Source of the DNA: a virus
IMG/VR virus record: IMGVR_UViG_3300042882_000890
Location: 1-64,000 of that record
Length of the DNA: 64,000 nt
Direction: 5' to 3' (one strand)
The position numbers were made by a program, and so were the translations under genes. The notes below the pieces were generated by a model that worked only from the letters and a program-made list of their open reading frames with translations, did not search any database and had not been told where the DNA came from. Shown in pieces: positions 48,296-48,975 of the stretch. Positions within the stretch are counted from its first letter, which is position 1; every line of letters begins with the position of its first letter.

Positions 48296-48975
48296 ACAAA
48301 ATTAGAACATAACCTGTACCCCCGAAAAACTCGTATTAATGATAAGCAGGTTATCCCGACATAAAGGGGTAGGAGAATTAGGGAAAATAAAGATTATGAA
48401 TGTGGTGCGACTTCTGCACAGATAGCTTAAAAGTCAGTAAACGAGCAGATAACTGAACTGCCACACAATCTTTATCTGTGTAAATATAGTAAATAGACGT
48501 AAGGCAGAGGGTCTTGAGTTAAATCGGACATTCCCCCCTACATAGGTAGCACGGAATTTATTTTTTAAGGTTAAACATTCAAACCTTTGTAATAGACTGT
48601 TAGGGGTCTTTAAGACGGAGTGCTACTTTACATAAAAGAAGTATTTTGCTTTACATAAAAAATGTTAATAGGTTAAACATTGAATACCTTTGTAAACAAA
48701 AAGCCTGCCTTAATGAGGTCTGCGTTAAAAGACTTGGCTATAGTAGTCTGTTTACATAAAGATACATGCAGTAATGTATGAACGTGAGTTGCCTTGAGAA
48801 AGCAATAAATATTAAGAGTATTAAATTGATATACTACTCACGTAATGAGCCTCGGCAAGTAGTTAATCAGGTGTGAGTTCAGTAATCCTCCCAATTACAC
48901 ATCGAAAGGAGGTAGTTAACTACGTGACCCTACTCTTATGTCGCAAGACTATGGATAAGAAAGAGGGTGCTAAAA
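48296..48975 (+). ncRNA. array of structured non-coding RNA modules
   Basis: About 680 nt ORF-free after promoter 48260-48291, with successive self-closing stems (see findings). Confidence 0.6.

Follow-up and report, generated by a model that had tools for sequence, protein, structure and literature searches.

The window, a 64,000-nucleotide (nt) stretch of viral DNA (positions 1 to 64,000 of the IMG/VR virus record IMGVR_UViG_3300042882_000890), is part of a 106.6-kb linear record with a G+C content of ~34%. A gap poor in open reading frames (ORFs) lies between a PD-(D/E)XK nuclease gene, ending at 48257, and a small ORF for a lipoprotein-like product of 54 amino acids (aa), with an HNH endonuclease gene as a further neighbour. 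Its segment 48296-48975 is the subject of this analysis. The first-pass annotation, made from the letters alone, described this segment as a non-coding array of structured RNAs with its own promoter, heading an island of transfer RNA (tRNA) and transfer-messenger RNA (tmRNA) genes. This description held: the longest plus-strand ORF within the gap encodes 38 aa, a Bacteroidetes-type promoter cassette precedes the segment, a tmRNA-like gene and a tRNA-Met gene lie downstream, and relatives of the segment show covariation. With a probability of roughly 0.7, we read the stretch as a promoter-headed island consisting of a ~76-nt RNA (module A), a ~180-nt spacer, a duplicated 5′ domain and a ~305-nt RNA of the same family as an RNA of Cellulophaga phage phi14:2 (Table 1). 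Both RNA families are uncatalogued in Rfam.

Relatives were gathered by way of the flanking nuclease gene and of an SPFH-like gene, which in some of them is located between the nuclease gene and the RNAs. They have short blocks in common whose identity is very high and whose order is constant. A search pattern derived from the two arms of helix P4 retrieved 48 IMG/VR stretches, with a variable insert of 18-48 nt, while its application to ~185,000 prokaryote genomes returned only one contig, 5.7 kb long and belonging to a genome bin. Apart from this contig, both RNA families were confined to phage contigs in the collections searched. The units range from 180 to 390 nt among relatives, and their longest ORFs starting with ATG encode 10-54 aa in no fixed frame. 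From 5′ to 3′, a unit consists of block B, then helix P0 enclosing a variable insert, block K, P1 (loop AGUAAU) and P2, which encloses P2a (loop CUUGAGAAA) and a variable hairpin; these are followed by a near-invariant joining strand, the optional helix P3 and P4. All family blocks and helices (P0, P1, P2, P2a, P3 and P4) are present collinearly in the window.

Collection of homologues from IMG/VR followed by covariation analysis, a check akin to one that the first-pass annotation had proposed, supported the large RNA. In alignment A2 (31 sequences), 94.7% of the cells were paired, compared with 36-47% when the partners were slid, and 25 of the 42 pairs were altered on both sides, a number of compensatory changes reached in none of 500 shuffles. 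Pairs changing on both sides were found in P1 (5/5), P2 (7/8), P2a (3/3) and P3 (7/8). Covariance model R1 matched the window copy at 48748-48978 with 156.9 bits (E 3e-36). The first-pass annotation had also considered a set of separate RNAs of 60-90 nt; five of its listed stems, accounting for four of its seven structure items, belong instead to this single ~305-nt RNA.

Table 1. Features of the RNA island and of its immediate surroundings in the window.
Feature	Position	Strand	Details
Promoter cassette, Bacteroidetes-type	48260-48291	+	-33 TTTG (48260-48263), 20-nt spacer, -7 TACCTTTG (48284-48291)
Module A, small pseudoknotted RNA, ~76 nt	48309-48384	+	Two adjacent hairpins whose loops pair
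Module A helices	S1 48309-48316 with 48347-48354; S3 48354-48357 with 48381-48384	+	
Module A loop-loop pairing S2	48317-48322 with 48366-48371	+	UACCCY with GGGGUA
Lineage-specific spacer	48385-48568	+	Holds multibranch 48387-48475 and the GTAGCAC 5′ arm
Extra partial 5′-domain copy	48569-48664	+	Block B1 48569-48589, local hairpins, two TTTACATAAA blocks; direct repeats D1, D2, D8
TTTACATAAA block copies in the extra domain	48627-48636, 48650-48659	+	Within 48569-48664
Large structured RNA, ~305 nt, assigned to the phi14:2 g004-g005 RNA family, helices P0-P4	48671-48975	+	Covariance model R1, alignment A2
5′ domain of the large RNA	48671-48765	+	Invariant block B2 48671-48692; P0; block K 48751-48765
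Helix P0	48691-48698 with 48749-48756	+	Encloses variable insert
Core	48765-48858	+	P1 48765-48780, loop AGTAAT; P2 48782-48789 with 48836-48843
Core, continued	P2a 48790-48804; joining strand 48844-48858	+	P2a loop CTTGAGAAA
Candidate loop pseudoknot	48795-48798 with 48851-48854	+	4 bp in window copy
Optional helix P3	48859-48866 with 48916-48923 (48859-48923)	+	Variable interior including nested CCTCC/GGAGG
3′ domain P4	48924-48975	+	ACCCT/AGGGT and TCTTAT/ATAAGA around AC/AAG internal loop
54-aa lipoprotein-like ORF, then first terminator-like hairpin	48993-49157; 49219-49232	+	ORF list, terminator scan

Within the core, a loop pseudoknot of the large RNA is likely. In the family, this candidate would join the loop UGAGAA and the strand UUCUCA over 6 bp; it is 98% paired across the family and shows no changes on both sides. 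In the window copy, CCTCGG stands in place of the family TTCTCAG and the pseudoknot is cut to 4 bp. The complementary CCTCC/GGAGG segments (48887-48912), which had been taken for a pseudoknot, are actually nested within P3. The whole P3 arm is missing in five of the aligned units (L095, L099, L111, L127 and L135; related loci carry L numbers throughout). P4 has a variable tip, GTC-GCAA-GAC in the window, and is followed by the tail GCTAA. Its invariance in A2 is partly a product of the P4-arm search pattern; P4 is also retained in the matches found without the pattern, namely those of phi14:2 and of Cellulophaga phage phi4:1, described below.

In the 5′ domain, P0 is formed by the 3′ end of block B and the opening part of block K. 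Cognate B and K arms gave a pairing energy of -5.8 kcal/mol versus -3.4 kcal/mol for non-cognate arms, a difference reached in 0 of 5000 permutations and, when only the variable part was considered, in 2 of 5000; this comparison supports P0 covariation. In L103, L121 and L122, the TTTG/TTTGTAA of block B is swapped together with its pairing partner, and in L111, L112 and L121 block B starts a few nt 3′ of a tRNA 3′ end. The pairing, the preference for cognate arms, the joint replacement and the start shortly after tRNAs or, in phi14:2, after the g004 stop place block B inside the RNA. Since it includes TACCTTTG, a match to the -7 box of Bacteroidetes, block B was considered as a promoter of the large RNA; this candidate was rejected, since its TTTG covaries with block K, the block abuts tRNA 3′ ends, and no other copy of it was found in the window with up to three mismatches, the weaker B1 copy differing by an indel.

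The window carries a tandem duplication of the 5′ domain, the extra copy being partial, and the TTTACATAAA block occurs three times in total. A B1-type 5′ domain leads straight into P1 in L137 and L001. In contig 9 of RNA-library run X17, 48649 is followed by 48751 and the intervening 101 nt (48650-48750) are missing, which corresponds to the form without the second 5′ domain; the duplication thus varies within the lake population. Recombination between the repeated blocks is its probable origin. The duplicated domain and the natural variant without it portray these RNAs as evolving through cassette recombination. A further conserved module of ~50 nt, beginning with AGCTAAGCTGTGTAAAG, is located just 5′ of block B in L099, L109, L137, L011 and L021 and is not present in the window.

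The link to a cultured phage surfaced only with the covariance model: blastn of 735 nt of the window against cultured phages returned only a 33-nt chance match to a microvirus. Model R1, whose seed alignment did not include phi14:2, matched the genome of this phage (NC_021806, L139) at 3107-3364 with 128.3 bits (E 3e-29). Block B starts there at 2913, ~8 nt past the g004 stop, and the RNA spans ~2911-3364, inside the g004-g005 junction and on the strand of the flanking genes. Judged by this model match, the window RNA and the phi14:2 g004-g005 transcript region are members of the same RNA family. That junction is reportedly transcribed above most genes, is already seen at the first time point and shows no decay; together with the g005-g006 junction, it was named a long non-coding RNA of unexplained function by Drobysheva et al. 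(bioRxiv 10.1101/2020.03.07.982082). What that paper gives for the g004-g005 RNA is a transcript level; it assigns the RNA to no family and describes neither a structure nor a function. The g005-g006 junction holds a tmRNA gene (4031-4500; ARAGORN tag peptide GSSVQKLAMVA), separated from the large RNA by ~670 nt that include an ORF. The phi14:2 copy is longer (~450 nt) and has an expanded P1 region, whereas the window copy has the duplicated 5′ domain, the weakened pseudoknot and a permuted tmRNA gene ~740 nt downstream. No module A was found in phi14:2, where the large RNA stands alone.

A reduced copy of ~135 nt, essentially P4 only, is present at 131439-131573 of Cellulophaga phage phi4:1 (NC_021788, L159), with an R1 score of 40 bits. 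In this unrelated phage, a Lightbulbvirus, the gene order resembles that of the window: exonuclease, PD-(D/E)XK, SPFH, further genes and ribonucleotide reductase. The gene that precedes the reduced copy is similar to phi14:2 g004 in its C-terminal coding sequence.

The small RNA at the 5′ end of the array, module A, belongs to a second family. A pattern scan for it retrieved 16 IMG/VR stretches, and model R2 gave 18 matches, 14 of them distinct, with 67-106 bits, from at least 13 IMG/VR contigs; the window copy scored 91.2 bits. Four of the five pairs of S3 change on both sides, while S1 and S2 are 96% and 100% paired. Six lineages have differing extra hairpins, all inserted at the same point of the S1 loop. 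Module A typically begins no more than ~10 nt past the end of the upstream gene or tRNA, and unusual tRNA-like genes are frequently found 3′ of it. Five of the contigs behind the 14 distinct sequences, the window's included, also carry the large RNA in the stretch examined, and module A is present in only 1 of ~40 large-RNA loci; the two RNAs are independent cassettes that mostly occur apart. One unusual tRNA-like gene, missed by standard ARAGORN, recurs at L002:8736-8830 and after module A in L140, L142, L147 and L149: it starts with GTCAGGTGGCGGAA and ends with CAGGTTCGA..CCTGTCCTGAC, its variable region is very long, and an anticodon-loop-like CCTCAAA is seen in the L002 copy. Between module A and block B, a conserved block containing GGGAACGCTTGTGAGTGGCAG was observed in three other loci (L001:4220-4300, L010:2598-2651 and L011:768-853), and is not in the window.

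The sequence between module A and the duplicated 5′ domain has no homologue among ~150 related loci (seven of them from a metagenome scan) or in the phage collection. Its fold z-scores were -1.13 and +0.19, ARAGORN found no tRNA-like gene in it under relaxed settings, and its 9-bp terminal stem is, by a rough estimate, close to the chance expectation for its size and composition. We treat it as a lineage-specific spacer, although it may alternatively be an unconserved RNA. More generally, the folding energy of the whole region did not differ significantly from that of shuffled sequence (z = -0.98 on the plus strand and -1.58 on the minus strand), nor did that of plus-strand sub-segments (z from +0.19 to -1.34), so the case rests on the relatives.

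With these comparisons, the structures listed by the first-pass annotation can be sorted. All 11 of its named complementary pairs are present, 10 of them exactly, the remaining one having its arm CAGGTTAT at 48347, one base off. Five of its seven structure items gained comparative support: 48309-48371 in module A, 48691-48756 (P0), 48782-48843 (P2), 48859-48923 (P3) and 48927-48968 (P4). The other two did not, as the multibranch structure at 48387-48475 has no homologue and the GTAGCAC/GTGCTAC stem (48546-48626) was rejected, relatives with the same module lacking its upstream arm. The P1 and P2a hairpins, the candidate loop pseudoknot, the small RNA's third helix and the tandem duplication of the 5′ domain had been overlooked.

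Searches for known RNAs were negative. Rfam cmscan, another check proposed for the region, found no match to any family in it even at E <= 10. For GOLLD and ROOL it gave none within 48100-50300 at this threshold and none in the whole window at gathering score, so that the region does not belong to these families. No tRNA or tmRNA domain was detected within 48296-48975 by Rfam or ARAGORN, relaxed thresholds included. Resemblances noted by eye to hepatitis delta virus (HDV)-like ribozymes, k-turns, tetraloop-receptor motifs and RNase P P4 were dropped because of mismatches in topology or in consensus letters.

Expression was examined in metatranscriptome libraries, the runs having been picked because they contain this stretch. 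Logan contigs from four studies cover 48312-49018 at 95-100% identity, spacer included; examples are contigs spanning 48327-48652 (2 mismatches), 48561-48856 (4 mismatches) and 48330-48480 (0 mismatches). The contig ends near 48849-48856 are not RNA ends; they stem from relatives that carry the joining strand in its consensus form. For the flanking protein genes (46500-48170, 49020-50080 and 50174-51500), no RNA-library contig was found, a lack of cover that is not counted as evidence.

The promoter cassette conforms to the well-established consensus of Bacteroidetes sigma-A promoters. It is part of a ~50-nt block with further copies at 13499, 17581 and 63819 in the window and others in relatives. 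Several of these copies have an ATG ~20 nt downstream, a place occupied here by the start of the small RNA. From this arrangement, transcription is expected to start at ~48297-48300. No terminator was detected inside the array; the first one follows the small ORF, and the primary transcript probably ends there. In the ORF product, Thr/Val/Asp-rich repeats come after a signal peptide and a lipobox-like VTSC; the ORF is kept in L001 (4674-4862), L011 and L154, and a similar ORF lies directly 5′ of module A in L142 and L149. The element 49156-49233, which ends in the terminator hairpin, is 91% identical to L002:7972-8049, above the level of the flanking proteins (74% aa identity). At 49250-49360, ARAGORN in intron mode only detects a tRNA-Gln (UUG)-like gene with an 18-nt insert, 93% identical to L001:5315-5432. 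From its listed GTG start (49286), the HNH ORF runs through this gene, and the ATG at 49374 is probably the real start.

tRNA and tmRNA genes are recurrent neighbours of the large RNA. Eight contigs have a tmRNA gene beginning 67-210 nt past the P4 start, always downstream and on the same strand, and five of these eight tmRNAs exceed the Rfam gathering score. Nearly half of 42 related loci have tRNA or tmRNA genes close downstream, some have tRNA arrays on either side of the large RNA, and many members have no tmRNA within 4 kb. In the window, the permuted tmRNA-like gene and tRNA-Met are found ~740-1100 nt downstream. The tmRNA-like gene itself (49749-50048) scores 42.1 bits, below the Rfam gathering score of 47, and its ARAGORN tag is GDVYQLGGVQLRAVA.

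Taken together, these data suggest the following scheme for the island. Host RNA polymerase would start at ~48297 and read the whole array, and probably the small ORF, to the terminator, after which the transcript would be trimmed to stable species; RNase P and RNase Z could perform this trimming where the RNAs abut tRNA or tmRNA genes, as in relatives. As for function, we offer a guess that we consider possible rather than probable: each RNA may be abundant and act in trans by binding, or serving as a decoy for, a conserved host factor, either RNA-binding or engaged in translation/RNA processing. In the large RNA, the binding surface would be made up of the sequence-invariant P4 and the near-invariant blocks that stay unpaired. 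We favor this proposal because of the invariant unpaired blocks, the survival of P4 alone in phi4:1, the abundance and stability of the phi14:2 transcript and the association with tRNA and tmRNA genes.

Several observations weigh against the island reading and the function attached to it. The window copy departs from the near-invariant joining strand, which weakens its pseudoknot, and in the family both P4 and the loop pseudoknot are always paired yet show no covariation. In module A, S1 and S2 are near-invariant, and the pseudoknot itself is not proven by covariation. The RNA-library contigs carry no information on RNA ends, strand or level, and DNA carry-over is possible. A search of the window for antisense targets of the invariant blocks gave nothing convincing, and the synteny with tmRNA genes could stem from shared descent or processing rather than from shared function.

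Among the alternatives, the first-pass annotation had raised the idea that the whole 680 nt form one ornate RNA of the GOLLD/ROOL type, with the modules as its domains. The single promoter, the lack of an internal terminator, the RNA-library contigs crossing module borders (48327-48652 and 48561-48856) and a phage setting beside tRNA/tmRNA genes all fit this idea. It is nevertheless improbable, as the pseudoknot RNA at the 5′ end and the large RNA at the 3′ end belong to separate families found apart in most genomes, phi14:2 having the large one alone; the 180-nt middle has neither homologue nor fold signal, protein genes or tRNAs occur between or beside the modules in relatives, and no Rfam family is matched. 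The array could also be a structured 5′ leader regulating the lipoprotein ORF in cis, given that no terminator separates P4 from the ORF and that P4 lies directly 5′ of a homologous ORF in L001, L011/L022 and L154. However, most loci have a tmRNA, a tRNA or unrelated sequence after P4, other genes lie downstream in phi14:2 and phi4:1, and in L142 and L149 module A comes after, not before, a small Thr-rich ORF, so we attach little weight to such a leader. Still harder to sustain is the proposal that the conserved blocks act at the DNA level, as promoters or as recombination junctions of shuffled cassettes, the stems being incidental. The -7-like motif of block B, the threefold TTTACATAAA block with a population variant deleted exactly between two copies, and the gain, loss and reordering of cassettes among relatives are in keeping with it, but compensatory changes maintain the helices, the block B TTTG is replaced jointly with its partner in three loci, block B begins next to tRNA ends in three, and, having no other copy in the window within three mismatches, it is not a general promoter.

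In a different alternative, the large RNA would do more than bind passively: it would be catalytic or self-assembling, or serve the phage tmRNA as a dedicated partner. The near-invariant unpaired blocks, the variable peripheral stems and the conserved pseudoknot would suit such a role, as would the position directly 5′ of tmRNA in eight contigs with constant order and strand, and the persistence of the P4-only copy in phi4:1. Yet no ribozyme family is matched, many members lack a tmRNA within 4 kb, and the phi14:2 RNA is ~670 nt and an ORF away from its tmRNA; we consider this role unlikely. We likewise give only a small chance to the broader proposal in which the ~300-nt RNA would be a new class tied to ribosome rescue or tRNA/tmRNA maturation (a trans-translation partner or antagonist, a ribozyme or a self-assembling RNA) and module A a second new class, of the kissing-loop type. 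If true, phages of several unrelated lineages would carry a ~300-nt RNA together with their own tmRNA.

The window helps connect one of the most abundant transcripts of phi14:2, a model crAss-like phage, unexplained since 2020, to a conserved and intricately folded RNA family with a definable core. This family is common to phages of different lineages, including phi14:2, phi4:1 with its reduced copy and numerous contigs of lake and marine origin, while the small kissing-loop RNA constitutes a second uncatalogued family in phage contigs, often near tRNA-like genes. For the large RNA, a cultured phage-host pair, predicted boundaries and known invariant blocks make the question of function testable.

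Three known systems invite comparison. Decoys or antitoxin mimics had been suggested as a possibility by the first-pass annotation. Type III antitoxin RNAs (ToxI-like) are also small, pseudoknotted and phage-related, and neutralize a protein; module A, however, is a single copy, with only short scattered repeats in place of a tandem array of 34-36-nt repeats and no ToxN/AbiQ-like gene next door. ROOL (~580 nt) and GOLLD (~800 nt) share with the large RNA an intricate fold with a conserved core and variable peripheral stems, carriage by phages or prophages and a frequent position beside tRNA genes. The large RNA differs from them in being shorter (180-450 nt), in residing in Bacteroidetes-type phages, in matching no Rfam family and in showing no sign of multimeric cages. 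In phage T4, species 1 and 2 (RNA C and D) are stable non-tRNA RNAs of the tRNA cluster, co-transcribed with it and released by tRNA-processing enzymes. Although they are shorter and show no relation in sequence or structure to the RNAs described here, they offer a parallel, the latter being likewise non-tRNA RNAs of a phage tRNA island and putatively stable.

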